A stretch of DNA of 64,000 bases, from positions 64,001 through 128,000 of IMG/VR virus record IMGVR_UViG_3300042484_002041; one strand, given 5' to 3'. This stretch comes from a virus. Shown piece by piece: positions 17,713-58,637 of this stretch. The number at the start of each line of letters is the position of its first letter. Positions within the stretch are counted from its first letter, which is position 1. Under the pieces are notes generated by a model. The model was not told the DNA's origin. It searched no databases and saw only the letters and a program-made list of their open reading frames with translations. A program made the translations under genes and the position numbers.

Positions 17713-17732
17713 ATTAATATATATACCGCACA

Positions 17733-18077
17733 ATGAAATACAATGTAAAATCACTTGATGGTCGGTACAGTTACAATAACTTGTTTGACTACTGTATTGA
17801 GTTTCATCCCACAATGAGTGTCTGGCACGGCCCCGAGGCATTCACTCAAGCTCAACAATGGTTTGTCGAAACATACGGCTGGAGTGCCGAAGTACGGCTG
17901 TGGACCGAGTTAAGTAAGTGGCGTAGCTGGGGCGGGAAGATAACAACTCAACTTGATCTCTCCGAGTACTGTAACCCGCTGTGGAGCTATTCAATCGAAA
18001 ATGCCAACCTTCGAATTTATGTTGCATCCGAAAAAGAGCTGATGTTTTTCCAACTGTCCCACCCCTGCACGAACTAA
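17733..18077 (+). CDS. Hypothetical protein
   Basis: Ends RIYVASEKELMFFQL. Confidence 0.6.
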   Translation: MKYNVKSLDGRYSYNNLFDYCIEFHPTMSVWHGPEAFTQAQQWFVETYGWSAEVRLWTELSKWRSWGGKITTQLDLSEYCNPLWSYSIENANLRIYVASEKELMFFQLSHPCTN

Positions 18078-20693: not shown

Positions 20694-21400
20694 TGATTGC
20701 GATTGCGGGAGACAGCTGGGGATGCGGGTTGTGGGGAGCCGATGTTGAAACTATAAACGTCAGTCGGCCCAATGGATCGAATCAAGATTCCATTAATCAG
20801 CTCGCAGCTCTATTAGATAATAGTCCGCATCTTAAAATTGATCAAGCTGTGGTCTTCCAGACCGAGTATATTCGAGATCTGCATAACGGACCAAAGGTAA
20901 CTGATAACTATCAAGTCACAGTCAATAACACAATATCTAACTTTTACTACCGTCTAAGTGATCTTGCCACAAAACACAATGTACAGATTCAACTGGTAGG
21001 CGGATTTAGTGATACTATTTGGCTTGATAAATTTGCCCAAGAATACCCTGGTGTCAATCTTGCTTGCCAAAGCGTGACTAATTTATTGTTAAGCAGCAAG
21101 TCTAAAATTAATACAGATTACCGATATCTAATTCATGATGATTCAGTTATCGATACGCCAGTCTTCTCTACATACAGTAATAAACTCGATGCGCCGGTAA
21201 TCGAGCAAATGAAACAGAACTGTGGCCCTGGCGAAGTGGACCAACTAACGGATGCTATTGCAGCTGGTCGGCACCGAGCTACATTATGGCAAGCTCATCC
21301 AGAATGGTTTAGTGATGACGGACTTTATCTTAGTGCTCGCAGTTGTGCTACAATAGCAGATTACTTAATTTCCAACCAACACATTAGAAAGACAATATGA
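20690..21400 (+). CDS. SGNH-like protein, possibly degenerate
   Basis: GDSWG motif; paralog of 46165-46902 but lacks the C-terminal His. Confidence 0.55.
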   Translation: MMIAIAGDSWGCGLWGADVETINVSRPNGSNQDSINQLAALLDNSPHLKIDQAVVFQTEYIRDLHNGPKVTDNYQVTVNNTISNFYYRLSDLATKHNVQIQLVGGFSDTIWLDKFAQEYPGVNLACQSVTNLLLSSKSKINTDYRYLIHDDSVIDTPVFSTYSNKLDAPVIEQMKQNCGPGEVDQLTDAIAAGRHRATLWQAHPEWFSDDGLYLSARSCATIADYLISNQHIRKTI

Positions 21401-22083
21401 ATGTTCGCCTGCTCAGCTACAGTCAACCCACAGCTGAATTTAAAGAACTTGGTATCGCCGATGCGCAAGAACTCATTGCCTATTGCGCCCGTGTGTCCAA
21501 TCCCAGCAATCAACTTAATACAGAAACAAGCGAAAAACTCATCCGATACTTGGTCAAGCACCAGCACTGGAGCCCACTCGAAATGGTCAGTGCCTGTATC
21601 GAAATTACCACAACAAGAGATATTGCCCGACAGATCCTGCGCCACCGTAGCTTCAGTTTCCAAGAATTCAGCCAACGATATGCTGACCCTACTAAAGACC
21701 TCTCGTTCGTACTTAGGGATGCCAGACTGCAAGACACAAAGAATCGACAGAATTCAGTCGACCTTGACCTCGGTAATGCCAGCCAACGAGAACTTAGCCG
21801 CTTGTGGATTGAAAAACAACAGGAAGTTATACGAACAGCAACCGATGCCTACACCTGGGCTGTCACTAACGGCATAGCCAAGGAACAGGCTCGTGCTGTT
21901 CTGCCCGAAGGTATTACTGAAAGTAGGCTTTACATGAATGGCACCTTGCGCAGCTGGATTCACTTTCTTGAGCTGCGCAGTGCAAATGGCACACAAAAGG
22001 AACACCAAGAAGTGGCTGTTGCTTGTGCCAAGGTAATTGCTACAGTGTTCCCAATAGCTGCGGATCTAGTTGCTGCAACATAA
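21397..22083 (+). CDS. thyX: FAD-dependent thymidylate synthase ThyX
   Basis: HWSPLE, RHRSFSFQEFSQRY, EQARAVLP motifs. Confidence 0.95.
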   Translation: MNVRLLSYSQPTAEFKELGIADAQELIAYCARVSNPSNQLNTETSEKLIRYLVKHQHWSPLEMVSACIEITTTRDIARQILRHRSFSFQEFSQRYADPTKDLSFVLRDARLQDTKNRQNSVDLDLGNASQRELSRLWIEKQQEVIRTATDAYTWAVTNGIAKEQARAVLPEGITESRLYMNGTLRSWIHFLELRSANGTQKEHQEVAVACAKVIATVFPIAADLVAAT

Positions 22084-22085
22084 CT

Positions 22086-22370
22086 GTGGCAGATTACCAA
22101 GTCCGTATAGTCGATGGTGTTCCTGTAGCCAGCAGCACCGTTAGTGTACACGAATTCCATGTAGGCGATGTTGAGGAGCCTACTGTATTAGCTGGATTTT
22201 TAATTGGCGAATGGGAAAGTACCGTGATCGGAAAGTGGGTTAAGGAAAATTCCATTGGGCCATTGCATTGGCAGAGCATGCACGACATGTCATACATGGG
22301 ATATCGATACTGCATAATTGCTCGTATGACTGAAGCTAATCAAGTTTTTTTCAAACTAAAATTTAAATGA
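22086..22370 (+). CDS. Hypothetical protein (C-terminal F-x-L-K-F family)
   Basis: GTG start after the thyX stop; ends VFFKLKFK. Confidence 0.6.
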   Translation: MADYQVRIVDGVPVASSTVSVHEFHVGDVEEPTVLAGFLIGEWESTVIGKWVKENSIGPLHWQSMHDMSYMGYRYCIIARMTEANQVFFKLKFK

Positions 22371-23332
22371 ACATTCTAGTCACAGGTGGATATGGCTTGA
22401 TCGGGCACAATGTTGTCCAACGCCTGGTTGCGCAGGGACAGCATACGGTGTCCATCCTTGATAACAAGACCAACTACGGCATTATCCCGCAAGCAGAACT
22501 AAAGTACTTGATGGCCGAACGCCGGGCCAAGATCAACAATCATCCTTGCTGGCTCAGATCAATCGAAAATGCCAACAGTGTCGACCGTGTGATCATAACA
22601 CAACGGCCTGAAGTGATAGTTCACATGGCATCGTTTCCCCGGCAAAAAGTAGTCAACGCCGACCCGGCAGCCGGTGCCGATGTCATGATGCGTGGGTTGA
22701 TCAACCTGCTCGAGAGTGCCAAATCACACGGCGTTCGACGGTTTGTGTACATTAGTTCAAGCATGGTTTATGGGAACTTCACAGATCAAGTACGCGAAGA
22801 TGCTCCGTGTGAGCCTCAAGGGCAGTACGGCATTATGAAGCTAGCAGGCGAGTGGCTGGTCAAAGACTATGCGCGTCGCACCGGCATGGAGTATGTGATC
22901 ATTCGTCCCAGCGCAGTATACGGCCCACTAGATGTAGAAGACCGTGTAGTGGCCAAGTTCATGCTGACAGCAATGCGTGGCGGGACACTTAAGGTAAACG
23001 GGTCTGGGGAGACTCTGGACTTTACCTATGTTGACGATGCTGCAGATGGTATTGTTGCTGCTACACTGACTGTGGCCAAGAATCGAACGTACAACATTAC
23101 CAAAAGTCATTCCGTAAGCCTGCTGCAAGCCGCAGAGATGATAGTCAAGATTGTAGGCAAAGGTAGGATCGAAGTACGTGATCGTGATGCCGACTTCCCG
23201 AGTCGCGGTTCCCTTGACATTACTGCAGCCAGGCAGTATCTTGGTTTTGATCCACAAGTTGATGTCGAAGAAGGGTTCCAACGTTACTATCAGTGGCTAT
23301 CAACATCTTCGTACTGGAATCAACTTATATAA
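22367..23332 (+). CDS. NAD-dependent nucleotide-sugar epimerase/dehydratase
   Basis: TGGYGLIG, SSSMVYG, YGIMK (YxxxK), DFTYVDD. Confidence 0.92.
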   Translation: MNILVTGGYGLIGHNVVQRLVAQGQHTVSILDNKTNYGIIPQAELKYLMAERRAKINNHPCWLRSIENANSVDRVIITQRPEVIVHMASFPRQKVVNADPAAGADVMMRGLINLLESAKSHGVRRFVYISSSMVYGNFTDQVREDAPCEPQGQYGIMKLAGEWLVKDYARRTGMEYVIIRPSAVYGPLDVEDRVVAKFMLTAMRGGTLKVNGSGETLDFTYVDDAADGIVAATLTVAKNRTYNITKSHSVSLLQAAEMIVKIVGKGRIEVRDRDADFPSRGSLDITAARQYLGFDPQVDVEEGFQRYYQWLSTSSYWNQLI

Positions 23333-24078
23333 TGCGATTATTTACAAACGGTTGTAGTTTTACTGAAGGATACGATCTGCCAGATCCGTCAATGGCCTGG
23401 CCGTCAGTTCTATCAAATAGTATTAAATGCGACGTAAATAATATTGCATTAGGCGGATGTAGTAATGACCGTATATTTCGTACAACTATCGAATATTTTA
23501 ATATTCATACTGCACCCGACATTGTAATTATCGGTTGGACATTTAATGATCGTGCTGAGTTAAGTCATCATTCAGGGGTTAGATTAAGATTAACGTCGAA
23601 TGCTTGCTTGCCAGACACAACCGAAATGACCGAAGATCTAACCCTTGTGCATAAATTTTGGACTACACAGTTACACAATCGATACTTAAACTATCATGCA
23701 TGGGTTCATTCTATGTTACATTTACAAGAGTATTTTAAATCTAAAAAGATTCAATATCTGTTTTTTACAGCAATAGGCAATGATTACATACACGAATTTA
23801 TCAACAATACAGACCTTGCACTAGAGCTTGCAGATCAGTCCTGGCAATGGAGAGATCGGGCTCGATATGCCCCATTCCGAAACATACATCGAGAATATCA
23901 GGATCTTAGATTGTGTATTGCCAAGATTGATCTCACCCATTGGGTAAGTCAGGCAAATTATACCATGGGTCAATATTTACTAAATCAAGGATTTAAATCT
24001 GACTGCACTGGGCACTATCACAGCGATGGACACCTGGCCTGGGCCGATCATCTTCGGGAATATATTAAAGGTGTCTAA
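23332..24078 (+). CDS. SGNH-family protein
   Basis: NGCSFT, GCSN, GWT, C-terminal GHY..DGH. Confidence 0.7.
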   Translation: MRLFTNGCSFTEGYDLPDPSMAWPSVLSNSIKCDVNNIALGGCSNDRIFRTTIEYFNIHTAPDIVIIGWTFNDRAELSHHSGVRLRLTSNACLPDTTEMTEDLTLVHKFWTTQLHNRYLNYHAWVHSMLHLQEYFKSKKIQYLFFTAIGNDYIHEFINNTDLALELADQSWQWRDRARYAPFRNIHREYQDLRLCIAKIDLTHWVSQANYTMGQYLLNQGFKSDCTGHYHSDGHLAWADHLREYIKGV

Positions 24079-25201
24079 TTTGTCAATCCCATTCTTTGGT
24101 CTTGACCGGCAATACCGCAATTTGCGCAAAGAGATCCTGGATGTTACGGATCAGGTATACAGCAGCGGCCAAGTACTAGACGGTTACTATACCAGGGTCT
24201 TCGAGGATGCCATCGCTCAAAGATGCAACCGAGAGTATGCAGTATCAGTCAACAGTGCCACTACAGGCCTGTTCTTTGCCATGCAGTGTGCGCCTGCTGT
24301 TGATATAGATAATGAAGTACTGATCCCAAGTCTAAGCTTCCCTGCCACATTAAACGCTGCCAACACCCGCGAGCACTTGGTCCGTATGTGTGATGTCAGT
24401 CCCGATGGATTGATCGACTTCGGAAGTCTTCCTACTACCTTGAGCCAGAGTCGTGTTGCTGTAATCATGTACGTTAACTTATTCGGCAACACAGTGGACT
24501 GGGAGAGATTTAACTTAGAGACCAAGTTCTTTGGCGGTGATAACTTCTTTGTAATCGAGGATGCTGCACAAAGCTTCGGTGCAAGTTCGCGTGGGGTGCC
24601 GTCGGGCAAGATGGGCGATGTTAGTGTACTAAGCTTTGACCCTACCAAGAACTTGCCCAACTATGGCTCTGGTGGCATGGTGTTGACTGACGATCCCACA
24701 ACCTTTAACCTACTACTCAATCTTAGAAACAACTGCAAAGAAGACGAACATGCTTATGTGGGGTATAACAGCAAGATGAGTGAGGCAGATTGCGCACAAA
24801 TGATGGTCAAGCTGGCGCACTTTGACAGCTGGCAAAAACGTCGTACTGCTATTGCTGAATACTATAACGAGAGGCTGGCCGCGTATGTTGACCTTCCGGG
24901 CATTACAGCAGGCACTACACATGCTTGGCACAAGTATGTGATTCGAACTCCAGCACGGGATCGTTTGCAACTAGACTTGGCTGCAAGGCAAACAATGACC
25001 CGTATACATTACGAAAAATCATTGCCCGAATATGATCTCGGTAGTCTAGCACTGGGAACCGATAACATGCTAGATGACATCAATCATTGGGAAGTCACGG
25101 CGTTCTGCCATGAGTGCCTGAGCTTGCCGATATACCCTGAGCTAACTGATGCCGAGGTCGAAACTGTGGTTAGTCAGGTAAGAGGTTTCTTCTCAGCATA
25201 G
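24071..25201 (+). CDS. DegT/DnrJ/EryC1/StrS PLP-dependent sugar aminotransferase
   Basis: EDAAQS, SFDPTKNL (PLP Lys), GGMV, LSLPIYP; start approximate (GTG). Confidence 0.92.
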   Translation: MSNLSIPFFGLDRQYRNLRKEILDVTDQVYSSGQVLDGYYTRVFEDAIAQRCNREYAVSVNSATTGLFFAMQCAPAVDIDNEVLIPSLSFPATLNAANTREHLVRMCDVSPDGLIDFGSLPTTLSQSRVAVIMYVNLFGNTVDWERFNLETKFFGGDNFFVIEDAAQSFGASSRGVPSGKMGDVSVLSFDPTKNLPNYGSGGMVLTDDPTTFNLLLNLRNNCKEDEHAYVGYNSKMSEADCAQMMVKLAHFDSWQKRRTAIAEYYNERLAAYVDLPGITAGTTHAWHKYVIRTPARDRLQLDLAARQTMTRIHYEKSLPEYDLGSLALGTDNMLDDINHWEVTAFCHECLSLPIYPELTDAEVETVVSQVRGFFSA

Positions 25202-27200
25202 CATAGCTGGCCAACCAGGCCCACTCATAGCTCTTGCGCAACTCAGTAAAGTTGCCCTGGACTGCATCGTAGTACTCTATTGCGTCCTGTGCGCCACAAC
25301 GACTCCACTTCTCGTTGACTATGTGCTGGTTAGTGTTGTCAAAGTTAAGCCAACGATCAAGTCTGTATTCGCTTTCCACATCTGGTAAGCTGGCGCGTAG
25401 TTTAATCGCCTCTCTAAATGCTGTACGCCAGGCCGACCAAGGTGTCTGGGCGTAATACGCGGTGCCCGACAGTATAGGAACAACTTCGTGTGCTTGATCT
25501 AAGGTAAAGTCCAGGCCTGTTCCGGAGTTTGATAATACCAGTTTCTTGTTGTACGCAATCATGGCTTGGTGTCCGTATTCTAAACCGTTAACGGGATTCT
25601 TTGCGTTGAAAATATAATGCTTGGCGGCCTGCAAGCGGTCTGGTTGCCAGTCCCACGGGAATCCAACATCTATCCGAAGCTTGGCAAACACACACAAGGC
25701 CCAAGGTGTTGTGCTTGCTTCTAACGCAGCGTGGTATGCAGCAACCCGGCCGTTAATACCATCAACACGGTGTAACCGATTAGGCTGTTCCTGTAGGCAC
25801 ATGGCAAGATGATTGTAGTGAAACTCTGCATTTCTTTCGCCGTTGCTGATAAACACCACATCCAGTGGGGCAGCACACAACATATGGTCACGTTCAATGT
25901 ACGGGTAGTCGTAAATCTGTGTGCGGACGTAAGGCACAGCAGTCTTGGGTATGATCACCGTTGCGCCACCGGAGTCCAATGCAACCACAGTCTTGGTCTG
26001 TTCTCGCCACAAGGACACAATGGCGAGATCACTAGACACATACTCCGTTGTGGTAAACACTGCAAATGGGCCTGACCAGTCTTGTGTCTTAACCGCATCA
26101 ACATGTGTGTCTTGCGCATGCCGCACAACCGGCATGGGCCGTCGGGGCACATCAGTATCTGTAATAAAATTTAAATCATACCACTCCAACAGTTGACAAC
26201 GTGCACTGCGTTCCTTAAAGGTAGGAACATGCATAAAGAATGTGTCGCCAAACTTTTGCCCCGAGCTTGGGAATACATGCAGCATGGTGCTTTGCCAGCG
26301 TTCTGGATGCCAAGAGAAGTCAAACCCAGTATAGTCACATAAAGAACTAACGATCCAGATCCACTCTTGATCATCTGGCGCAGAGTTGGCAATGCGCTTT
26401 AACGTGTCCAAGTAGTTGTCAAAGTAACGTACACGTTTAAGCACCTGGGTGTGCTGCTCAACTTGCTGCGTTGTCCTGTCCACGGCACCGTCCAGGTGAT
26501 CAATTACATATGCACCCGACGTATATGTGCTGCGGATGCGCAAATTCTCGGCAAACTTTGTATCAACTGCACCCGGAACCACGTACTTGGGGCCGCCGGT
26601 ACGCTGATGTTGTGTACCAAACTCATAAATGTAAGGCTGTTCTGTGGTGTCTGGATGCCAAGTCCAATCAAAGCTGTTGACATCAACTCCGGGAGGAACA
26701 AGCCAACAATCATCACGACTGGTAACAGTAGCCCGTGGAGCGGCCACATATTTAATATCCTGTCCGCCCGGCACTGTGTATACTGGGCCGCCTGACTTTT
26801 GATGCTGTGTGCCAAATTGATACACCATAGGCGGCTCTGTAGGATCTGGGTGCCAACTAGTATCCCATGATTCGATGCTACGATGTGGCATTGTCCAGTT
26901 GTCCGCAGCAGGCAGCCGTGTGATGATGGGTGCAGCATGATAGTTAACATCTGCACCACCGTGCTTGGGAATCAGATACGTTCCTGAATCCTTTTGCCAC
27001 TGGCTTGCCCAAGCATGCTGTTGATGACTTTGCCAAGGCACAGGTTCCCAAAGCCAATCCCACCCCGAGTAGTTCGCTAAGTATGTTACGATCCAGCAGT
27101 ACCGTGTGCGACTTAATGCCTGTGCATGGCGGATTGATTCACACTCTTGCTCGTGCGCAAACAGATCTGGTTTGTTGCCAATATAAAAAACGTCAAACAT
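25170..27200 (-). CDS. Multidomain glycosyltransferase-like protein with internal repeats
   Basis: Repeated W[DT]xxWHP...Y[QE]FGTQHQ..GGP units; C-terminal domain homologous to 51952-52875 (DVVFIS..RVDG..AWR.AFRE). Confidence 0.6.
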   Translation of the reverse strand: MFDVFYIGNKPDLFAHEQECESIRHAQALSRTRYCWIVTYLANYSGWDWLWEPVPWQSHQQHAWASQWQKDSGTYLIPKHGGADVNYHAAPIITRLPAADNWTMPHRSIESWDTSWHPDPTEPPMVYQFGTQHQKSGGPVYTVPGGQDIKYVAAPRATVTSRDDCWLVPPGVDVNSFDWTWHPDTTEQPYIYEFGTQHQRTGGPKYVVPGAVDTKFAENLRIRSTYTSGAYVIDHLDGAVDRTTQQVEQHTQVLKRVRYFDNYLDTLKRIANSAPDDQEWIWIVSSLCDYTGFDFSWHPERWQSTMLHVFPSSGQKFGDTFFMHVPTFKERSARCQLLEWYDLNFITDTDVPRRPMPVVRHAQDTHVDAVKTQDWSGPFAVFTTTEYVSSDLAIVSLWREQTKTVVALDSGGATVIIPKTAVPYVRTQIYDYPYIERDHMLCAAPLDVVFISNGERNAEFHYNHLAMCLQEQPNRLHRVDGINGRVAAYHAALEASTTPWALCVFAKLRIDVGFPWDWQPDRLQAAKHYIFNAKNPVNGLEYGHQAMIAYNKKLVLSNSGTGLDFTLDQAHEVVPILSGTAYYAQTPWSAWRTAFREAIKLRASLPDVESEYRLDRWLNFDNTNQHIVNEKWSRCGAQDAIEYYDAVQGNFTELRKSYEWAWLASYAMLRRNLLPD

Positions 27201-28311
27201 GATTCGTATAGATGAGATTTACAATAATACTTTTTGGCCATTCTTAAAGAAGAACGCACCACAAACAAGAATGTTCTTTTGCGATCCACCCGGTCGCAGC
27301 GATCCCGAAAGCTTGTTTAATTTTGGAATTAATGATGTTGAATGCAATTATATACTATTCCACGATCAAGAACCAATACATATGGACATCCATTGCGCTC
27401 TATTTGATGATGTAGTACGGCGAAATGATGATATTGATAATCAACAACCAATTAAAAATCGAGCCGTAGTCACAAGCGAATACAATAGCGAATTTGTTGA
27501 ACAAGTATGTAGTCAATATAATTGGCAGCACTACTATTACTTCTATCACGGGTGGGCAGCACTGGATTGGTATCGCGGCTATCATCGTACCTGGCTCATT
27601 ACACCTCCCGAACAACGCAAAATAACTAGAAGCTTTATTGCCCCTAATCGTATTGTGGGGGGCAAGCGCGATCACCGTGTATTACTGCTGTATCACATGT
27701 TCCGCAATCAAGTTAGTAATGCCTGGATCAGTTGCCCAAGGGTGTGCCCTGCCGAAAATGTCGCCATTGATCAAATAGCTGCAAAATTTAGTACACGTTA
27801 TCCTGATATCGGTGCAGTATTCAAACAAGCACCAATCCCCATGAACTTTCCTGGTGAGACTGATCACCCCATGCATAGCTGCTGGTTAAGCTTGTTTGAC
27901 GAAAGTGCAGAAAGTCTTGCTTATGTAGTAACAGAAACTGTGTTCCAGGGACGCAGACAGCACTTGACTGAAAAGACTTTTAAGCCCATATGCTTGCAAA
28001 TGCCATTTGTTTTGGCCGGCGCTGCAGGCAGTCTTGAGTACTTGCGTAGTTATGGATTCCGTACATTCAGTGGCATATGGGACGAGAGTTACGATACGGA
28101 AACGGACGACTTTGTTCGCCTGGAAAAAATAGGACAGTTGCTTAAAGACCTAGACAACATGAGCCAACGCGAGCTCAACCAATTGTATCAAGCTGCGCGA
28201 CCTGCTGTAGAACATAACTATAAACATTTCTATGGGGGCACGTTTGAAGCCCTGTTATGGAACGAGTTGCAACAAATGTTAACACAAATTAAAAATGATT
28301 TTCGAGTTTGA
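27199..28311 (+). CDS. 'TEK' glycosyltransferase-like protein (GT10-like)
   Basis: VVTET...HLTEKTFKPI...GFRTF..IWDESYD. Confidence 0.75.
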   Translation: MIRIDEIYNNTFWPFLKKNAPQTRMFFCDPPGRSDPESLFNFGINDVECNYILFHDQEPIHMDIHCALFDDVVRRNDDIDNQQPIKNRAVVTSEYNSEFVEQVCSQYNWQHYYYFYHGWAALDWYRGYHRTWLITPPEQRKITRSFIAPNRIVGGKRDHRVLLLYHMFRNQVSNAWISCPRVCPAENVAIDQIAAKFSTRYPDIGAVFKQAPIPMNFPGETDHPMHSCWLSLFDESAESLAYVVTETVFQGRRQHLTEKTFKPICLQMPFVLAGAAGSLEYLRSYGFRTFSGIWDESYDTETDDFVRLEKIGQLLKDLDNMSQRELNQLYQAARPAVEHNYKHFYGGTFEALLWNELQQMLTQIKNDFRV

Positions 28312-29458
28312 TCAATACGTTCAAGGCCGTCCGTGCCCTAACTTGGCACGACATCAAGCTGTGCCTTACACTCCCGGGTGGAGACAGTTTAACGGACACT
28401 GGCCCTGGGTACAACCTGCAATACTACCTGACTACTTGCAGCATGAGGGAGTTGATACTACACAAGGTGCCCGCTATTATGTTGTGGCATTAAGTTGGTT
28501 TGACTTTGGGATACAGTGGTTCAACTTGATCCCTGCAGAGAGAATTAAACAAATGCAGCAAGGGCAGCTAAAGCTGCTGTTCTATTACAACGAAGGCGAC
28601 AATCCCAAGCGACTTCGCGACCATTTACTAGCGCAGTGTAGGAGCGCAGGAGTAGCCGAGGATCAGTTAATAATCATTAGTGGCAACTCTGCTGCTGACC
28701 TGTTACCTAACTCAGCCTGGTTCCCTGATCATGAATTATTATATGCAAAAAGAAATCGACGTGTAGAGCCTATTGCTTATCACGAGCAGCCCCGCAGTAA
28801 ACTGTTTACTGCACTGGTAAGGACACACAAGTTTTGGCGTGCAACCACCATGGCCGAACTATGGAGGCGGGGGTGGCATCAACATGCCTACTTCTCTTAT
28901 AACACACGCTTGGCAGTAGAGGAGACTCCGTCTGACAATCCCATTGAGATCCATAAATTTGACGGACTCAATGTCAGTATGTTTGACTTCTTGCGCTACC
29001 AATTCAAAGCTGATACCCTGACGTCTGATCAACATAATGATCATCATTTAATTGTAGCCGAGCACCATAATGACAGTTACTTGAACGTGGTACTCGAAAC
29101 ACACATGGATGCAGATCAAAGTAATGGCGTATTCTTAACAGAAAAGACATTCAAGCCCATTAAACATGCGCAGCCATTTGTTATTTTTGGAGCAGCACAT
29201 AGCCTTGCACGGCTGCGGGACATGGGGTACCGAACATTCGACCACGTGTTAGACAATAGATACGACAGTATAGAAAACACCACAGATAGGTGGCAATGCT
29301 TGGTCACTATGTTGCACACAATGTTCGGGGGTGGTGTGCCGCACATGCATCAGTTATATTGTGCGTGCCGAGATGATATGCTGCACAATCAACAGCATTT
29401 TTTAGCCTCGCGCAGGGACCGCTTAAATAATCTACTTAGGAAAATCAATTGCGAGTAA
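28295..29458 (+). CDS. 'TEK' glycosyltransferase-like protein (GT10-like)
   Basis: VVLET...FLTEKTFKPI...GYRTF..VLDNRYD. Confidence 0.75.
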   Translation: MIFEFDQYVQGRPCPNLARHQAVPYTPGWRQFNGHWPWVQPAILPDYLQHEGVDTTQGARYYVVALSWFDFGIQWFNLIPAERIKQMQQGQLKLLFYYNEGDNPKRLRDHLLAQCRSAGVAEDQLIIISGNSAADLLPNSAWFPDHELLYAKRNRRVEPIAYHEQPRSKLFTALVRTHKFWRATTMAELWRRGWHQHAYFSYNTRLAVEETPSDNPIEIHKFDGLNVSMFDFLRYQFKADTLTSDQHNDHHLIVAEHHNDSYLNVVLETHMDADQSNGVFLTEKTFKPIKHAQPFVIFGAAHSLARLRDMGYRTFDHVLDNRYDSIENTTDRWQCLVTMLHTMFGGGVPHMHQLYCACRDDMLHNQQHFLASRRDRLNNLLRKINCE

Positions 29459-30471
29459 ACTCATACACCAGCTGGCAACCGCTTGAAGAAGTTATTGTGG
29501 GACGAACCTACACCACGGACTACTTTGACTTTATCGATAATGCGCAAGTACGTGGCCAACTACAGCAAATTCTTTTTGAAACACAAGAAGATCTTAGCAA
29601 CTTGGCACGTACCATTGAATTGTTTGGGGCTAAAGTTCAACGTCCAGACTTGCCCGATAAGAAAGATTTTGAGCAGTGGCAAATTCAAGGTCAAGGTGCA
29701 CCACTTCCTCCTCTTACTCCAAGAGACTGGCAAATTACCCTAGGTAACAAGCTGTTACGGGTGTTGCCCATGCCTGAACTGGATCGTATTTGTTCCGAGT
29801 ATGGAGATTCTGTACTTAATCCGCACGGAGACAATTGGGATCCTGACTGCATCTTAAATGGTGCCAGTGCCAGTTGCATTGTACGGGTAGGCCGGGATGT
29901 GTTCTTTGATAATTCAGACTTCTTGCGCCCTGATCAAAGCGCCTGGATCCAGGACAATTGTTTAGATTCCAACTATCGCATCCACGAGGCTGTCACCGAC
30001 GGGCACGGCGATGCTGTGTTTGCTATCCTCAAGCCCGGTGTTATCCTGAGTAGCAAACACGATGTCAATCTCAACTTGGCAAAGGACTTTCCTGGATGGG
30101 ATGTTTGCAAGATTTGGGACAGTAGTATCTGGGCAGCAATGGAAGTAGGCAAGTTCAAGTACGAGCAAAGTCCTGGCGCTTGGTATGTGCAAGGACAAAC
30201 CCCTACTCCTGCATTTACAGAGTTTGTTAATACTTACTTGACCAAGTGGACTGGCTTTGTTGCCGAGACTGTGTTTGATGTCAACTGCTTGGTACTAGAC
30301 GAGTCGCACGTGATCTTTAGTGCATACAATAAAGAAGTGTTTACGTTTTGTCACAAACACGGCATTGAGCCTATTATCAGTGAGCTACGGCATAGTTACT
30401 TTTGGGACGGCGGCATTAGCTGCTGCACACAAGACATTCGGCGCTGCGGCGGGTTAGAAACATACTTGTGA
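29449..30471 (+). CDS. Amidinotransferase (glycine/inosamine-phosphate amidinotransferase family)
   Basis: SWQPLEEVIVG, PRD, GHGD, WDGGISC catalytic Cys. Confidence 0.85.
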   Translation: MRVNSYTSWQPLEEVIVGRTYTTDYFDFIDNAQVRGQLQQILFETQEDLSNLARTIELFGAKVQRPDLPDKKDFEQWQIQGQGAPLPPLTPRDWQITLGNKLLRVLPMPELDRICSEYGDSVLNPHGDNWDPDCILNGASASCIVRVGRDVFFDNSDFLRPDQSAWIQDNCLDSNYRIHEAVTDGHGDAVFAILKPGVILSSKHDVNLNLAKDFPGWDVCKIWDSSIWAAMEVGKFKYEQSPGAWYVQGQTPTPAFTEFVNTYLTKWTGFVAETVFDVNCLVLDESHVIFSAYNKEVFTFCHKHGIEPIISELRHSYFWDGGISCCTQDIRRCGGLETYL

Positions 30472-31760
30472 ATGACCTTGACAACATCTATAAAGAACTA
30501 GGCAAAGACATATGTTTAATGCCTTTCCTGGCGGCCTTCTATCAAACACATAATGTAGCGCAAGTACAAGACGGCGAACTACCAAATTCTGTTCGCCCGT
30601 GTAGTTTAATCACAAAAGATACACCTAGAAGATGGGCAATTACCAATCAAAGTGTGTATGAGGCCAGAAATTCGCCTGCCTGGAGAGAGATTCGGGAACA
30701 GTTTGTCCAAGGCCAATTTAAATCAATAGATGATTGTAGCATTTGTATTCATAATGAATTAGTAAACGGTACTAGTCCCAGAAAGGAAAGCAATCGAGCG
30801 TTAGCACATCAACTAGATATCAACATTGTTGATACTGTAAAACAAATCATTGCAGACGATTACTATGCTCACAATATCTATGCACTAGATTACTATCCTA
30901 GCAACTATTGTAATCTAGAATGCGTAATGTGCGGCAGTGGCTCCAGTAGTCGTAGACAAGTGTTTGAGGTTAAATTTTTAAATCAACCAAGCCGGATTAC
31001 ATTTAACGAGGCTGATCCAGACTTCCTGGACGCATTACATAGAGTACAAGTAATAAACTTTGCCGGTGGCGAAACAATGATGCAACCACAATTTCACAAA
31101 GTGCTGGATTACCAGATTGATAATGATCTAGCCCATAATGTTATTGTTGGCTTCTTGACCAATGCCACTAGCAATACTAGCAAAGTTGATAGTAAATTTC
31201 AACACTTCCGTCAAGTTGTGTGTAGTGTGAGTATAGACGGAGTCGGAGAAGTAATTGAATATCAGCGCCGCGGCTGCAACTGGGCTGAAGTATCAGAGAA
31301 TGCACTTACGCTAATGCATCATACTGATGTCGGTGCTGTGGTTAACTATGTGCTTACCAATATAAATGTATTCAGCTTTATGGACTTTGTTGACTGGTGT
31401 TACACTAACGACTATGGTCCCAAGTATAAAGAAGAGCAACGGAACTTTATCACGATCACACCTGTGTTCAGGGCCGATCATTTAAGCGTCACAGCACTGC
31501 CCCCGGAGTTAAAACACACAGCACTGAGTAGATTACATGCCGGGTTGGTCCGTTATCGTGCGATCAACACTGTGATGTCCAGGTACTACAGTCGTATAAT
31601 CCTGCAGGCAATTGATATTGTGACAGCTGCCAAGCATGATGAATCACACTTGATGCAGTTTGTTCAGTTAATTCAAAAAGAAAATCTTGCAAGTGCCCGG
31701 TCTTTACAGCAAGTGGTGCCTGAATGGGCACCATACTTACAGCCTAACTACAAACCTTAA
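30468..31760 (+). CDS. Radical SAM protein with N-terminal SPASM/Twitch-like domain
   Basis: CLMPF...PC...CSIC; CNLECVMC; GGE; SIDG. Confidence 0.85.
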   Translation: MNDLDNIYKELGKDICLMPFLAAFYQTHNVAQVQDGELPNSVRPCSLITKDTPRRWAITNQSVYEARNSPAWREIREQFVQGQFKSIDDCSICIHNELVNGTSPRKESNRALAHQLDINIVDTVKQIIADDYYAHNIYALDYYPSNYCNLECVMCGSGSSSRRQVFEVKFLNQPSRITFNEADPDFLDALHRVQVINFAGGETMMQPQFHKVLDYQIDNDLAHNVIVGFLTNATSNTSKVDSKFQHFRQVVCSVSIDGVGEVIEYQRRGCNWAEVSENALTLMHHTDVGAVVNYVLTNINVFSFMDFVDWCYTNDYGPKYKEEQRNFITITPVFRADHLSVTALPPELKHTALSRLHAGLVRYRAINTVMSRYYSRIILQAIDIVTAAKHDESHLMQFVQLIQKENLASARSLQQVVPEWAPYLQPNYKP

Positions 31761-33225
31761 CACCGTACTGTTGTTCAAAACGGTCTGCATCAGCGCGATC
31801 ATTAACAATCGGCTCGCCCCTAATGTTAAGGCTAGTGTTAAGCAGCATGGGGCAGCCTGTAAGCATGTGCCAGTCTTCAAGTAGTTGTCTAATCCCGGAA
31901 CCATCCGCAGGCACAGTTTGCACCCGTGCAGTGTTGTCCACATGGCAAATGGCCGGGAACTGCTCCGGATGTCGACATGGGGCAACAATCTGCATGTAGT
32001 GACTAGACTGCCAGTTGTGTGGCATATCAAAGTGTGCACCAGCAAACTCAGCCAACACAACAGGGGCAAAGGGCCGAAACTGCTGCCTACGCTTGATCAA
32101 GTTGACACGGTCTTTGATGTCTGGTCCACGTGGGTCAGCCAGTAAGCTACGGTTACCCAAGGCGCGCGGACCAAACTCTGCACGGCCACTTGCTACACCC
32201 ACAATCTTGTTGGCCAATAGTTCATCAATCACTGCTCGTACTGGGTATGCGCCCGGGATCATATGGCCCAAGAATGCAGTTTTCCAATTCAATCTACGTC
32301 CAAATGCCAGTGCTGCTGCACCCAAGCTGCTACCAGCATCACCCGGGTTGGGCATGATCCATATGTGATCAAACATGCTACCTAGTTTACTGTTGGCAAC
32401 ACAGTTCAGTGCTACTCCGCCCATGTACACTAAGTTGCTCTCGCCTGTGAGCGCACGGGCATGCTGCATGATGTTCCGGACCAGTGCTTCAGTCAATGTC
32501 TGTGCAGCCGCTGCAATGTCTTCTTTACGTAGAAATGGCAGCTCATAAGGATCCAAGCCTATGTGTAGATTCTTTTTAAAACGGGCAGTTTTAATATCAT
32601 CAATGAACTGATCGCGCATCCAGGCCGCGCCCAGATCAGATCCATACGCAGCCATGCCCATGGTGATGTATTCTTCTTCCATGGGCTTCAAGCCTACTGC
32701 CTTGGTAATGGCCGAATAGAAAAGACCAATACTGTGTGGATACCCTTGCCGCCATAACAGTTGGTATTGCGCACGGCCATCTGCTGCGGAATATCCTGCA
32801 CGGTAAATGCTTATAGTATCAAGCTCGCCAATGGCATCAATTACCACAACGGCTGCAGTTTCAAATGGGCTGGTCTGAAAACCCGCTGCGGCATGACTCA
32901 AGTGGTGGCCGGCACAGGTAACACTGGCAGACTCCGGATACCAGCGGCCCAGGTGTTGCTTTAACGCAGTTCGCAAGCGCCAAGGGCCATACAAGTGCTG
33001 CCCGCTGCGCCACTGTTGTATGTTATGCATCCAGGGGCGCTCGTAGTACGCTACTGTAGACCAGTCCCATTGGCTAGCATCCTGTAACAAGGTAGTGTGC
33101 AGGAGTTTATCGTTTTTCTTTTTACTGTACCGCTCGCTATGCCCAGCAAATAGAATCTCGCCGTCGATGCTAATCACAGAGGCTGCAGCGTCATGATAGC
33201 CGGCCGAAATCCCTAATATGTTCAT
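31744..33225 (-). CDS. O-carbamoyltransferase (NodU/CmcH/TobZ family)
   Basis: HDAAA, HHLSHAA, GRAEFGPRALGNRS, FRPFAP, LLNTSLN. Confidence 0.93.
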   Translation of the reverse strand: MNILGISAGYHDAAASVISIDGEILFAGHSERYSKKKNDKLLHTTLLQDASQWDWSTVAYYERPWMHNIQQWRSGQHLYGPWRLRTALKQHLGRWYPESASVTCAGHHLSHAAAGFQTSPFETAAVVVIDAIGELDTISIYRAGYSAADGRAQYQLLWRQGYPHSIGLFYSAITKAVGLKPMEEEYITMGMAAYGSDLGAAWMRDQFIDDIKTARFKKNLHIGLDPYELPFLRKEDIAAAAQTLTEALVRNIMQHARALTGESNLVYMGGVALNCVANSKLGSMFDHIWIMPNPGDAGSSLGAAALAFGRRLNWKTAFLGHMIPGAYPVRAVIDELLANKIVGVASGRAEFGPRALGNRSLLADPRGPDIKDRVNLIKRRQQFRPFAPVVLAEFAGAHFDMPHNWQSSHYMQIVAPCRHPEQFPAICHVDNTARVQTVPADGSGIRQLLEDWHMLTGCPMLLNTSLNIRGEPIVNDRADADRFEQQYGVKVCS

Positions 33226-33869
33226 TAAATTATTTTGTTACTCTGAATAAAATCATAAACCTTGTCTGCTACAAGGCGGTGCCCATCTTCTAAAAAGTGG
33301 TGTTCAGGGCCAAACTTGCATCCGGCGGCATGTGCCCATTCAACCATTCCAGTATTTTCATTGGCTGCAATAAAAAGAGATCGATCTACCAAGTCGGTAG
33401 AGTAATAGTATTCTGGAAGATTGATAACTTGGCTACGCAACATCACATATGGTATTTTCCTCATTTTTAAAAAACTCGTTACGAGAATGACATTGTGATA
33501 CCAGGTTGTTTTCTCCAGGAATTCTTCATTATGATTTCTATCTATGTAGTTCAACAAAGGCAATCGTTCTTTCCGAACGCTACAAAATGCTGCATAGCCT
33601 GGCCATAAATTAAATGTTCCGACCTCATCAGAAAATTCCTGGCGTCGTGATACTGTCCACCCAATTATTACCAAGTCCGGCGCCAGGCGGGTAGGGTGGG
33701 TGCAATAGTCCAGCAACTGCCTGCATATTCCAGGGTTGCTGTTGCCCCGGTGGGCTAGGTTAGTCAAGTCGGCTAAAAGCCGACTTGACACCAGGGCCGG
33801 CCATGCATTGTCCAGGTTTGATAGCTCTTGACCGTACGTAAAACTATCACCTAAGGTTAGTAGGTTCAT
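33225..33869 (-). CDS. SGNH-family protein
   Basis: LGDSFT, GNSN, GWT, HHF..DGH. Confidence 0.7.
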   Translation of the reverse strand: MNLLTLGDSFTYGQELSNLDNAWPALVSSRLLADLTNLAHRGNSNPGICRQLLDYCTHPTRLAPDLVIIGWTVSRRQEFSDEVGTFNLWPGYAAFCSVRKERLPLLNYIDRNHNEEFLEKTTWYHNVILVTSFLKMRKIPYVMLRSQVINLPEYYYSTDLVDRSLFIAANENTGMVEWAHAAGCKFGPEHHFLEDGHRLVADKVYDFIQSNKII

Positions 33870-33970
33870 TAACGATAGATAAAAGGATCCCGTTTCCTTA
33901 ACTCTTTGAGTTTTTTACGGTATCGAATTTCTAATCGAATTCGATTGTATAGGTTTTTAATCCAGTTCAT
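33869..33970 (-). CDS. 33-aa micropeptide ending RDPFIYR (SxtK/DUF5989-like)
   Basis: MNWIKNLYNRIRLEIRYRKKLKELRKRDPFIYR; TAATG overlaps at both ends; absent from the ORF track. Confidence 0.75.
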   Translation of the reverse strand: MNWIKNLYNRIRLEIRYRKKLKELRKRDPFIYR

Positions 33971-35067
33971 TATGAGTTTCCTTGTCTAATGATTGCAACT
34001 TGTCGAGCCATAAAGTCACCGTCACTCCAACGATAATCATAATGAGCTGCACTGCTACTTGTTTTTACACTGTAAACATCAAGGTGCTGTACTAATTTAG
34101 TCCATATGTCTTGATACTGTATAGAACCAAATGTGCGCAGTAAATCAACCTGTGCAACTTGCGGATGTCCAATAGTCAAGCTTTTGTCGCTGGGGTCAAA
34201 TCCATTATGGATTAGCCAATCTCGGAACTGAGCAATCTTTTTTTGCTGCCAGGGAAAGGTGCCGGGGTTGTTGGCCCACTCGATGTCAAAGTCTCCGGCT
34301 GCTTCAGTTTGACTTTTTAGTGTCGTCGTAATTAGTTCACTAACGTCCCGGCCCTCATCACAAAACACCTCCCAGTGGTGCTTGCCCACTGCTTTGTTTA
34401 CGCCCACAAACACACCACCTAGGGGCCGGTTAATAGTGTCAACCCCAAACAGTTCGTAGTCTTCTTGATCTAAGGCAAACCTTGGCGCTTGCAGCCAACA
34501 CATCAACTGACTGGGGCGCTGCCATTCAGGTGCTGCTAGTTGCATGCGGAAACTAAGGGCCCAGCTTTCGAACTCATGACAAAGTAGGTTAAGCTGTCTA
34601 ATATGCCACCTTGTTTCGGCGTTGGCCTGGAGGAAGAATGGGCTCATGTTCCCACTTGTGCCTTGCAGGTCTTCAAAGTAACGGTGTAACCAGTTCAAGC
34701 GATTGTGTATAAGATTACGCTTTAATGTAATTCCTGTACGTGCAGATAGCGCATCGTCGCGGTCTGCAATGCAGTTGTCCATTGTGAAGAAGTCATTAAT
34801 TTGATACCCCAAGTCAGCTGCATTAATTGCAGCAATGGATCTGTTTACTTGTTCAAGAATCAACTGCCCATTACGTTTATGCTCTACTATGCCAAAAAAG
34901 CAATAGTTCTTTTCAAGATGATAATTGTTTGTTAGTAATTGATTCAGTGCAGCCAGCCATTTACGCGACAAGCTGCTGTCGTATACATCAACGTATACGG
35001 TCAACGGTTGATTGTCTTGACCGCGTAACCCAATTTCAATCTGATCTAATACTGTTCCACCACTCAT
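33970..35067 (-). CDS. Hypothetical protein in the modification cluster
   Basis: 365-aa ORF coupled to neighbours; LNWLHRYFE / LNLLCHEFE helices. Confidence 0.7.
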   Translation of the reverse strand: MSGGTVLDQIEIGLRGQDNQPLTVYVDVYDSSLSRKWLAALNQLLTNNYHLEKNYCFFGIVEHKRNGQLILEQVNRSIAAINAADLGYQINDFFTMDNCIADRDDALSARTGITLKRNLIHNRLNWLHRYFEDLQGTSGNMSPFFLQANAETRWHIRQLNLLCHEFESWALSFRMQLAAPEWQRPSQLMCWLQAPRFALDQEDYELFGVDTINRPLGGVFVGVNKAVGKHHWEVFCDEGRDVSELITTTLKSQTEAAGDFDIEWANNPGTFPWQQKKIAQFRDWLIHNGFDPSDKSLTIGHPQVAQVDLLRTFGSIQYQDIWTKLVQHLDVYSVKTSSSAAHYDYRWSDGDFMARQVAIIRQGNS

Positions 35068-36334
35068 ATATTTCTTTGTCCTGTTGTAGTATATCTAGCA
35101 TTGTGTAGGTGTCGCTGCGAATTTCTTCCAGCTTTAGAATTCTACGCTTGCCTTTGATCAGACCAGCTTGCCAAGTGTCCGGCCATTGTTGTTCAAACGT
35201 GGGACGATTCTTTAACTGTAACAACACATCACGCAAGGCACCGTCGGGTAGCTGTGCTGCCAGCTGGTCTACCCGACAGTCCAATAACTCCCTGGGCAGT
35301 GCTAAGGGACTAAGCACAATGTCTGGACTGAAGCTGAACACTACCTTGGCCAGCACGCCTACACCATACTCCTGTGCCAGCTGCTGTATGTTCTCTATTT
35401 CAAACAAGCCGGGCAGTGTCAGTGTAAAGTCTATACGCATCTGACGTGGATGTCGTTGCCGTTCTACCCCACGTGCAAAGTTATCCCGCCACTGCGCATA
35501 CTTTAGCCCAGTACGGATGTACTCCCCTGTGGCTCCTGTGCCATCCAGGCTAGCACAGATTTGCCAGTCGCGTATGTTATCAAGAATATCTCGATAAAGA
35601 TTATTGCCTCTGTAATCCACCCTGCTGAGGTTGGTGTTGTATCTAGCGTAAACACGTGGTCCATCTCCTAGTTCAATAATTCTGCGCATGTAGCGCCAGT
35701 GCTGTTCGTACATCAAGGGCTCGCCGCCTACCCAGTATATTTCTTCTACCCGGTGCTGTTCAACTGCTTGTGAGAACTCGGCCTCTACCTGTTGGTCTTG
35801 GAACTGCGTGATCTCTTTACGTACAGCAGGCAGCATCCAGTTGTTCCGGGCATTGCCCCAGTCAATCATGTTGTGCTGTTGCTGCTCTGACTCCCACTGG
35901 CTACTTAACATGTCGCCGCACATGCGACATTTGAAGTTGCACAGATTACTGAAACGGTAGTCCCAGCTGACAGGTTGCATTGTGGTGTAACCAGCGGCAT
36001 CTGTACTGTTAGCCAACTCATCGTATTTGTGCTTGAACAAGTGCCAAAAATAACTACGGTAAACATCTGTATTCAGCAGGCGGTCATTACAGACTTCGCA
36101 CTCGGGCAAGGTCTCCCCGGCCAGCATCCTACGCCGTACACTGCGCATGTGTTCTCCATTCCAGTGCTGCTCTAGAGTGATGGGAATATATCGCCCTGTG
36201 CCTGCTGCGGTGTCAATGTACTGTTGGAAGTTCTGTGCCGGTTCCCTGCTTGCACAGCACATGCGGCGTTCGGTCTGCGGGCTCAGGTAAGTGTGCGTCC
36301 AAGGCGCCAGGCACAGGGTGTCAGGTTTCTGCAT
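35036..36334 (-). CDS. Radical SAM protein with N-terminal SPASM/Twitch-like domain
   Basis: CLAPW...CC...CEVC; CNFKCRMC; GGEP; SLDG. Confidence 0.88.
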   Translation of the reverse strand: MQKPDTLCLAPWTHTYLSPQTERRMCCASREPAQNFQQYIDTAAGTGRYIPITLEQHWNGEHMRSVRRRMLAGETLPECEVCNDRLLNTDVYRSYFWHLFKHKYDELANSTDAAGYTTMQPVSWDYRFSNLCNFKCRMCGDMLSSQWESEQQQHNMIDWGNARNNWMLPAVRKEITQFQDQQVEAEFSQAVEQHRVEEIYWVGGEPLMYEQHWRYMRRIIELGDGPRVYARYNTNLSRVDYRGNNLYRDILDNIRDWQICASLDGTGATGEYIRTGLKYAQWRDNFARGVERQRHPRQMRIDFTLTLPGLFEIENIQQLAQEYGVGVLAKVVFSFSPDIVLSPLALPRELLDCRVDQLAAQLPDGALRDVLLQLKNRPTFEQQWPDTWQAGLIKGKRRILKLEEIRSDTYTMLDILQQDKEIYEWWNSIRSD

Positions 36335-58610: not shown

Positions 58611-58618
58611 TATTTATA
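58611..58618 (-). promoter_or_regulatory. T4-like late promoter TATAAATA
   Basis: Exact TATAAATA upstream of GGAG RBS and the tail-fibre gene. Confidence 0.7.
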
Positions 58619-58637
58619 GGACAATAATACATCATAT

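Follow-up and report, generated by a model that had tools for sequence, protein, structure and literature searches.

What does a phage make with an aminotransferase, an amidinotransferase and a carbamoyltransferase encoded within a few kilobases of one another? The question is raised by a stretch of 64,000 nt (the window), which covers positions 64001-128000 of the 167.6-kb IMG/VR record IMGVR_UViG_3300042484_002041 (estimated completeness 48%, CheckV), and whose PHROG and Pfam matches (T4 baseplate protein, baseplate hub, PstS and ThyX) are markers of a T4-like jumbo phage. A first-pass annotation of the window placed a DegT-type aminotransferase, an amidinotransferase and an O-carbamoyltransferase within 9 kb, and evidence from Pfam, PHROG, the PDB and Foldseek bears out all three assignments. 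The genes belong to an island of ~34 kb (window ~22.4-56.2 kb), and on balance we lean towards the view that this island makes or tailors, in the cytoplasm of the infected cell, a glycan or glycoconjugate with guanidino and carbamoyl groups. Each enzyme comes from a known superfamily; the polymorphism of the DegT slot, the invariance of the amidinotransferase active site, the Bdellovibrionia context of the family and the negative searches of complete relatives for cyclitol synthases, a hydroxymethylase and an initiating transferase are the additions made here.

We compared the island across 54 IMG/VR loci of the same lineage, each with at least 9 kb on either side of the amidinotransferase gene; JGI and ENA metagenomes supplied the related contigs. 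The syntenic relatives measure 320-350 kb, and several of them have terminal repeats. A Megablast search of GenBank phages with the 9.9-kb region returned no match. One 148-kb contig, NZ_JBBAKG01 (loci L092 and L102), has full island synteny and an amidinotransferase that is 81% identical; it is binned in a metagenome-assembled genome (MAG) labeled Haliscomenobacter sp. (Bacteroidota), which is either a lead to the host or a binning artefact.

Identity and active site of the amidinotransferase

The amidinotransferase (29449-30471, + strand, 340 aa) is placed in the AGAT/StrB1 family, in a clade of phage and Bdellovibrionia members. It has no Pfam match even at E ≤ 10, and its sole family match is PHROG 25854, annotated as 'unknown function'. 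A phmmer search of all PDB sequences returns AGAT, StrB1, SxtG and HsvA only (E 1e-13 to 3e-9), and a profile built from 54 family sequences still returns those four only, at E 1e-34 to 4e-32. When its AlphaFold model (pLDDT, the predicted local distance difference test score, is 90.4) is searched with Foldseek, StrB1 is the top match and StrB1, AGAT, HsvA and SxtG all score at E 1e-18 to 2e-17, with ADI, DDAH and agmatine deiminase at 3e-9 or weaker, about nine orders of magnitude worse. As modeled, the protein has a pentein (beta/alpha propeller) fold that is nearer to amidinotransferases than to deiminases or DDAH.

The profile bit scores are 115 for StrB1 and 120-123 for AGAT, SxtG and HsvA. 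By this measure the amidinotransferase appears to be equidistant from all four enzymes and to lie outside the StrB1 branch, and the phylogeny that the first-pass annotation proposed as a check therefore cannot assign its acceptor. From these comparisons we take it to represent a distinct, previously undescribed clade below the reach of Pfam detection. More than 1600 homologs are present in a set of 5.8 billion proteins, the best 120 of which are all at least 81% identical; when clustered at 50%, the lineage forms essentially a single cluster, and its next relatives are at most 42% identical. Single distant homologs lie mostly on short contigs. Characterized amidinotransferases yield small molecules, among them creatine precursors, streptomycin, saxitoxin, cylindrospermopsin and amidinated polyamines, and our literature search found no paper that tests the function of any phage amidinotransferase.

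The catalytic motifs of all three enzymes had been described as intact, which holds for the DegT protein and the carbamoyltransferase; in the amidinotransferase it holds for the Cys, the His and two Asp residues, with Ser140 aligned at the position of AGAT's triad Asp254. The catalytic Cys is C325 in WDGGISCCTQDIRR, aligned to AGAT Cys407 in GGGFHCWTCDVRR; its context is G-G-x-x-C-x-T-x-D-x-R-R, and it is kept in all 54 family sequences and in 74 lineage loci. H186 corresponds to AGAT His303 (53 of 54 family sequences), and the guanidinium-binding residues are D188, equivalent to AGAT Asp305 (54 of 54), and D93 of the PRD motif (R92-D93), equivalent to AGAT Asp170 (52 of 54). R332 is among the conserved residues, and E273, an acidic residue that is nearly invariant, is a candidate for contact with His186. 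Throughout the lineage, the motifs PPLTPRD, GHGDAVF, ASASCIVRVGRD and FWDGG[IV]SCCTQD are unchanged in 73 of 74 loci; FWDGG-x-[HS]-C and E-T-V-F-D-V-N are the motifs specific to the clade of phage amidinotransferases.

The aminotransferase and the carbamoyltransferase

The DegT/DnrJ/EryC1/StrS-type pyridoxal phosphate (PLP) aminotransferase occupies 24026-25201 on the + strand, with an in-frame GTG at 24071 as its probable start. It matches the full PF01041 profile (E 8e-65, 219.8 bits against a cut-off of 19.8). Its PLP-lysine motif SFDPTKNL aligns to SFYPTKNL of 7b0d, and EDAAQ is likewise aligned to solved DegT enzymes, the nearest of which are 7b0d, DesV (2oga) and QdtB. Every NCBIfam equivalog compared (PseC, DesI, WecE, ArnB and others) falls below its cut-off, the best being PseC at 149 versus 423.5 bits, and consequently the substrate and the aminated carbon are left unassigned.

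The NodU/CmcH/TobZ-type O-carbamoyltransferase (31744-33225, − strand) has both of its Pfam domains above the cut-off, a Kae1-like N-domain (Carbam_trans_N, PF02543, 125 bits) and a YrdC-like C-domain (Carbam_trans_C, PF16861, 167 bits), and it matches PHROG 1601 over its full length (E 2e-94). It aligns lengthwise with NovN (E 7e-53), GdmN and TobZ and shares with them HDAAA, HHLSHA, GGVALN, DAGSSLGAA, GPRALGNRS and LLNTSLN, including the metal- and nucleotide-binding motifs. On two other phage contigs (L161:1675-4774, − strand, and L106:5474-7558, + strand), ThyX overlaps the start of the carbamoyltransferase gene, an arrangement of translational coupling, and the pair lies 2-4 kb from an amidinotransferase, which links thymidylate synthase to the carbamoyltransferase there.

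Glycosyltransferase-like proteins with a predicted GT-B fold

Immediately upstream of the amidinotransferase, two genes encode glycosyltransferase (GT)-like proteins. The first (27199-28311, + strand, 370 aa), a putative GT-B-fold, GT10-like protein, is present in 54 of 54 loci with a median identity of 55%; the second (28295-29458, + strand, 387 aa) is a paralog with 24% identity and the same C-terminal TEK domain, and it overlaps the start of the amidinotransferase gene. The AlphaFold model of the 370-aa protein (pLDDT 90.6) aligns in VIA-align to T4 beta-glucosyltransferase (Z 11.4), a PBCV (chlorovirus) glycosyltransferase (10.1), T4 alpha-glucosyltransferase (10.0) and an alpha1,3-fucosyltransferase (9.5). 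Over residues 1-370, upwards of 30 GT-B enzymes align to it at Z 8-11.4, and the best 50 matches are nearly all GT-B; the best Foldseek matches are all GT-B as well, at a weak E of ~1e-3. As modeled, the protein is a two-Rossmann-domain GT-B fold over its whole length.

The motif T-E-K-x-F-K is invariant in this GT-like family, and we take it to resemble GT10 fucosyltransferases. Together with a weak lead from the protein atlas (score 0.79), the motif points to a putative GT10-like mode of donor binding. The TEK C-terminal domain is common to six island genes. The TEK GT-like profile also picks up a 450-aa open reading frame (ORF; 16489-17841, − strand) outside the island, at E 4e-14.

Conservation within the lineage and across the amidinotransferase family

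Over the 54 loci, the median identity of the amidinotransferase is 81%. The carbamoyltransferase is present in every locus, at a median distance of 720 nt from the amidinotransferase and with a median identity of 62%, and DegT is found in 49 loci, with a median identity of 37% and no value of 50% or more. The co-location of the three genes is non-random, and yet the trio as such is not conserved as a unit, DegT being swappable. Presence in all loci, together with conservation, makes the amidinotransferase and the carbamoyltransferase part of a constant core, whereas the SDR and DegT genes resemble a swappable sugar cassette. A linkage of the amidinotransferase to sugar genes in relatives, on which the first-pass annotation had staked its reading, is found: the 54 lineage loci carry it with the carbamoyltransferase and the GT-like genes. 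A distinct amidinotransferase clade is fixed in a widespread lineage of 320-350-kb phages, always with a carbamoyltransferase, GT-like and radical SAM genes.

Complete relatives have 2-4 amidinotransferase-family genes each. In this genome, a genome search locates a second copy at record positions 159086-160078 (− strand; L005:11069-12088), which is 33% identical, adjoins a T4 baseplate gene and the gene for a 1382-aa protein, and falls in another phage clade of the family tree. Beyond the lineage, we examined the neighbors within 10 kb at 80 diverse phage loci and counted GT-like (TEK) genes at 27, N-terminal-twitch (N-twitch) radical SAM genes at 26, SDR genes at 12, UDP-sugar (uridine diphosphate sugar) dehydrogenase genes at 6, and full DegT and carbamoyltransferase genes at 2 each. 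Across the family, the steady partners of the amidinotransferase are N-twitch radical SAM proteins, joined in phages by the GT-like proteins, and not DegT or the carbamoyltransferase. A better DegT profile finds eight further half-size (~200 aa) DegT-like genes near amidinotransferase relatives, with the lysine motif (SF-x-x-x-K) kept; several of them, in other phage lineages, abut the amidinotransferase or lie within ~150 nt of it. They include genes at ~9333-10001 in L109, L111, L112 and L135, at 1840-2472 in L116, and at ~10800-11540 in L170 and L182. This genome has a half-size DegT-like gene of its own (record 22458-23057), which follows an SDR gene in a second sugar cluster (~21.5-31.6 kb) that contains no amidinotransferase.

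Nearly every cellular homolog (~30% identity) comes from a Bdellovibrionia MAG chromosome, the contigs reaching 917 kb, and these homologs form one clade. Among 86 neighboring ORFs at six of these loci, 31 are radical SAM, 13 are SPASM-domain, 6 are of the Asp/Arg-hydroxylase family (Asp_Arg_Hydrox) and 1 is a Kdo hydroxylase. Up to ~11 N-twitch radical SAM paralogs surround the amidinotransferase homolog in the Bdellovibrionia loci L095-L104.

Gene layout of the island

To the left of the island lies a conserved ThyX thymidylate synthase gene (21397-22083, + strand; Pfam Thy1, E 1.4e-45), found in 44 of 54 loci with a median identity of 73%. Together with a small ORF, it belongs to the genes 5′ of DegT, and so do the SDR and DUF6071 genes. 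The SDR protein (22367-23332, + strand; Pfam Epimerase, E 2.6e-45; 52 of 54 loci, median 68%) is NDP-hexose (nucleoside diphosphate hexose) 4,6-dehydratase-like; its best NCBIfam match is dTDP-glucose 4,6-dehydratase (E 5.9e-39), under the equivalog cut-off. The DUF6071 (SGNH/GDSL-like) protein (23293-24078, + strand; Pfam DUF6071, E 3.3e-9) is an insertion particular to this genome, for which the 54 related loci offer no more than one weak match (24% identity); a second DUF6071/GDSL-like protein (33225-33869, − strand; E 1.2e-6) is rare, being present in 4 of 54.

Between DegT and the GT-like genes lies rep676 (25170-27200, − strand), a conserved protein of 676 aa with W-x-PDP...FG-Q repeats, found in 54 of 54 loci with a median identity of 52%. 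We found no relative of it in Pfam, PHROG or the PDB, a PDB profile search included, and nothing of use in NCBIfam; the protein atlas gives a weak lead only (Glycos_transf_2, score 0.84). A 307-aa ORF at 51952-52875 (− strand) matches the rep676 profile weakly (E 1.4e-10). The rep676 gene and the first GT-like gene are divergent, with start codons that overlap by 2 nt (27199-27200) and no space for a promoter between them. The four plus-strand genes of 27199-31760 overlap one another at their start and stop codons, and there are convergent 3′ overlaps of 32 nt between DegT and rep676 (25170-25201) and of 17 nt between the last plus-strand gene and the carbamoyltransferase (31744-31760). That last gene encodes an N-twitch radical SAM protein (30468-31760, + strand; NF033640, 218.5 bits against a cut-off of 170), which overlaps the amidinotransferase by 4 nt; its slot varies among relatives, and likely orthologs (38-51% identity, with strand and position kept) occur in few loci only.

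Beyond the carbamoyltransferase, the island continues with u365 (33970-35067, − strand), a conserved 365-aa protein (54 of 54 loci, median 61%) that has no family match in Pfam, NCBIfam or PHROGs. Another N-twitch radical SAM protein (35036-36334, − strand; NF033640, 284.3 bits against 170; 54 of 54 loci, median 73%) opens a conserved array that reaches 56156, and which includes a radical SAM gene at 37237-38454 (54 of 54 loci, median 67%). The minus-strand string starts at a fibre-like gene (57215-58585), takes in GT-like genes, a second SDR gene, a UDP-sugar dehydrogenase gene and eight radical SAM paralogs, and ends at the carbamoyltransferase. Hydrophobic segments of the membrane type are absent from all 36 island proteins, and consequently the island has no exporter. 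Just upstream of the island, the genes for an ATPase (15138-16229, + strand; PHROG 1297) and a DUF2201 metallopeptidase/VWA protein (18146-19456, + strand) lie close together; the two resemble a MoxR-VWA-type pair.

Proposed pathway and target

From enzyme families, folds, conserved residues, synteny and co-occurrence, we infer each chemical step, the amine acceptor and the final target. Our searches for cyclitol synthases and for a ThyA-type hydroxymethylase cover this fragment and five relatives that are 93-100% complete. No nucleotidyltransferase (PF00483) is present in this fragment, so NDP-sugars of the host are the likely input. A host NDP-hexose would be converted to an NDP-amino-dideoxyhexose by the SDR 4,6-dehydratase and DegT, a module that differs between phages, and the six GT-B-fold, GT10-like paralogs would attach sugars to an acceptor. 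The amidinotransferase would take the amidino group of L-arginine onto Cys325, release ornithine and hand the amidino group on to a primary amine in the product, which would become a guanidino group. The carbamoyltransferase would O-carbamoylate a hydroxyl through a carbamoyl-adenylate, and the N-twitch radical SAM enzymes may carry out further tailoring. The absence of membrane proteins from the island, and of a Bac_transf-type lipid-carrier initiating transferase from this fragment and four complete relatives, fits cytoplasmic, lipid-carrier-independent construction of the glycan.

The dehydratase-like SDR gene before DegT, the coupling to GT-B-fold genes and the abutment of DegT-like genes, of full or half size, in other phage lineages make a guanidino- and carbamoyl-substituted sugar a reasonable product, and to this extent the first-pass prediction stands, its sugar context included; the diffusible small molecule that it offered as a second possibility is unsupported. 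That the sugar amine installed by DegT is the very acceptor of the amidinotransferase we rate at somewhat less than an even chance. The recurrent adjacency of DegT and mini-DegT genes in independent lineages backs this assignment, and the swappable DegT slot and the DegT-free context in Bdellovibrionia weaken it.

For the target of the glycan, we favor a virion component, for example the adjacent giant fibre protein, because of three observations. First, the island abuts the fibre-like gene (57215-58585) and the gene of a 4825-aa virion structural or fibre-like protein (window 59409-64000 and beyond; record 123412-137886; − strand; PHROG 10938). Second, a motif resembling the T4 late promoter, ATAAATA, heads the minus-strand string: it occurs 18 times in the 168-kb record, 12 of them no more than 60 nt 5′ of a start codon, and only twice in the window, at 58611-58641 (− strand), before the fibre-like gene. 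Third, in S-SCSM2R (PQ898602), a cultured T4-like Synechococcus phage, the amidinotransferase ORF266 was detected in the virion proteome (PMC12801897). The 4825-aa protein is low in lysine (1.8%), and its composition has neither collagen-like nor Lys/Ser-rich acceptor repeats. TATAAATA occurs once in the window, below chance expectation, and scanning 21-36 kb for sigma-70 promoters and terminators gave nothing informative. We also considered, and rejected, a general placement of amidinotransferase genes beside giant structural genes: ORFs of at least 800 aa number 0.18 per 20 kb near diverse members and 0.72 genome-wide here.

Several findings weigh against this picture. In three independent alignments, Ser140 stands where AGAT has triad Asp254; the column varies over the family (S/N/D/A/E) and is fixed as Ser within this lineage. 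The GT-like proteins have no glycosyltransferase family match at the sequence level, either in Pfam at E ≤ 10 or in the PDB profile search, and NCBIfam and PHROGs gave nothing of use for the 370- and 387-aa proteins. Conservation of DegT is much lower than that of the amidinotransferase (median identity 37% versus 81%); in 5 of the 54 loci no DegT was found within 10 kb, and the slot has at least 10 sequence types, of which the type in this genome is a singleton. The acceptor of the amidinotransferase may therefore be an invariant amine from a source other than DegT. The 86 neighboring ORFs in Bdellovibrionia include no recognizable glycosyltransferase, DegT or carbamoyltransferase, and around diverse family members there is no enrichment of large structural genes. 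Both the product and the target are predictions.

More broadly, the set of amidinotransferase, radical SAM and GT10-like proteins is present in many aquatic jumbo and T4-like phages, and its first two members also in predatory Bdellovibrionia. We suggest tentatively, as a possibility short of likely, that this amidinotransferase clade, the N-twitch radical SAM proteins and the GT10-like proteins form an uncharacterized tailoring system that places guanidino groups, and here also carbamoyl groups, on a virion glycan. If so, it would give the first known case of a virus with a guanidinylated glycan, and amidinotransferases would have a new class of acceptor. Such a glycan would bring new sugar chemistry and a new surface charge to the virion, which could affect adsorption, host range and recognition by defence systems, and the amidinotransferase, through arginine-dependent release of ornithine with defined acceptors, would offer a biochemical handle on the unstudied N_Twi_rSAM family.

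Alternative acceptors and products

The strongest rival to a sugar acceptor, unlikely though we judge it, is a non-sugar one: the amidinotransferase, together with the radical SAM enzymes and, in other genomes, 2-oxoglutarate (2OG) hydroxylases, would modify a free amine, a peptide or a side chain of a protein (turning lysine into homoarginine, for example, or ornithine into arginine), with the sugar genes serving a parallel step. Radical SAM (SPASM/twitch) genes are indeed the strongest partners family-wide, and the Bdellovibrionia loci have no recognizable sugar genes; the DegT slot is swappable and the amidinotransferase invariant; the second paralog lies beside baseplate genes, outside the island; ORF266 of S-SCSM2R is in virions, its gene next to 2OG oxygenases; and HsvA, of the same family, uses non-sugar amines according to the title of PDB 5wpi. 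What argues for the sugar is that the lineage gene is co-operonic with two GT-B-fold genes, that GT-like neighbors are present in 27 and SDR neighbors in 12 of the 80 diverse phage loci, and that family members often have a DegT or mini-DegT gene directly beside them; a precursor-peptide gene was not identified.

A distinctly less probable reading turns from virion glycans to the phage's own DNA, in which a base glycosylated by the GT-B enzymes would then receive guanidino and carbamoyl groups, aiding packaging and evading restriction. In structure, the 370-aa protein comes closest to the T4 DNA beta-glucosyltransferase (Z 11.4) and alpha-glucosyltransferase (Z 10.0), but these values are barely above those of dozens of other GT-B enzymes. 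ThyX flanks the island and is coupled to carbamoyltransferase genes in L161 and L106, and the island enzymes are all soluble; a ThyA-type hydroxymethylase (PF00303), however, is absent from this fragment and the five near-complete relatives, and it is fibre genes that adjoin the island. Tet_JBP also gave no match, but the control of that search was silent, and the result is uninformative on absence. To our knowledge, a 34-kb island with eight radical SAM and six GT-like paralogs is far bigger than known DNA-glycosylation modules, which counts further against this reading.

We think it very improbable that the island serves to remodel the envelope of the infected host (lipopolysaccharide or capsule), with a block on superinfection as one conceivable purpose, and not to decorate the virion. 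PHROGs place this type of sugar-nucleotide enzyme and carbamoyltransferase in the auxiliary 'moron' class, ORF266 of S-SCSM2R adjoins KdsA/KdsB, and a Kdo hydroxylase is found in one Bdellovibrionia locus. Against these stand the absence of a Bac_transf-type initiating transferase from this fragment and the four complete relatives, an island that has no membrane-spanning flippase, polymerase or ligase, and a lytic T4-like phage whose fibre genes come directly before the island.

Least probable of all is a free, diffusible small molecule like an aminoglycoside, streptidine or saxitoxin: the trio resembles StsC with StrB1 and TobZ, or SxtG with SxtI, the nearest solved DegT relative is labeled glutamine--scyllo-inositol transaminase, and the homologs in S-SCSM2R carry an 'antibiotic synthesis genes' label given without a functional test, but 2-deoxy-scyllo-inosose synthase/DHQ-synthase-like (PF01761) and myo-inositol-1-phosphate synthase (PF07994) genes are absent from this fragment and the five relatives in searches whose controls were positive, no polyketide or AONS-type enzyme is found among the ORFs scanned, the island has neither a membrane protein or exporter nor Pfam hits for export or self-resistance, the amidinotransferase appears equidistant from all characterized branches, and multiple glycosyltransferase-like paralogs would better fit a polymer or glycoconjugate. 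The aminoglycoside analogy of the first-pass annotation is consequently not supported, with no cyclitol synthase, no exporter in the island and an amidinotransferase that appears to lie outside the StrB1 branch.

Comparison with known systems

We return to glycan tailoring as the favored reading and set the island beside the systems that it resembles. With the streptidine branch (StsC, then StrB1; PDB 1bwd) it shares the logic of oxidizing, transaminating and amidinating, and both superfamilies are present in the phage. Compared with StrB1, the phage amidinotransferase keeps the Cys, the His and the two guanidinium-binding Asp residues, and Ser is aligned with the triad Asp. Unlike the streptidine pathway, the phage has no cyclitol synthase and no exporter in the island, and its amidinotransferase, which stands among GT-B-like and radical SAM paralogs, is by profile score no nearer to StrB1 than to AGAT, SxtG or HsvA.

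The acceptors of those three enzymes are free small amines: a polyamine for HsvA, glycine for AGAT and a saxitoxin intermediate for SxtG. HsvA of Erwinia amylovora (a polyamine amidinotransferase, 5wpi), AGAT (1jdw) and SxtG (6u1r) share the fold with the phage enzyme, for which covalent Cys-amidine chemistry is expected; the phage clade differs in having motifs of its own and in lying below Pfam detection. The T4 alpha- and beta-glucosyltransferases (1y6f and 1c3j) are, like the 370-aa GT-like protein, soluble phage enzymes of the GT-B type, but the identity is only 6-8% over aligned residues, and the hydroxymethylase is absent in this phage lineage.

A virus-borne dehydratase, a DegT-type aminotransferase and glycosyltransferases are features in common with virion glycosylation in Mimivirus and mycobacteriophages, with the difference that the virion target is putative here. 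In Mimivirus, a 4,6-dehydratase and a DegT-type aminotransferase reportedly make viosamine for the virion fibres, and glycosylation of mycobacteriophage virions is said to be described by Freeman et al. 2023, which PMC12619734 cites. In such systems the virus modifies structural proteins of its own within the cytoplasm. We know of no report of an amidinotransferase, a carbamoyltransferase or a radical SAM array in either of these systems.

Phage S-SCSM2R encodes two amidinotransferases, ORF309 and ORF266 (PQ898602; PMC12801897), and identity to them is only 21-31%, with ORF309 a far outgroup in the family tree. No carbamoyltransferase is present in the ~16-kb stretches around either of its amidinotransferases, in contrast to the island described here. 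Its authors name the genes 'antibiotic synthesis genes', a label given without a functional test (PMC12801897), and no gene-content test in our analysis supports that published label for such phage clusters. What the two phages have in common is the arrangement: the operon that contains ORF309 (ORF305-309) includes some five genes annotated as glycosyltransferases, along with 2OG oxygenase genes, a radical SAM gene and a short DegT-like gene, and, like S-SCSM2R, the present phage carries an island copy of the amidinotransferase together with a second copy set apart from it, beside baseplate genes.

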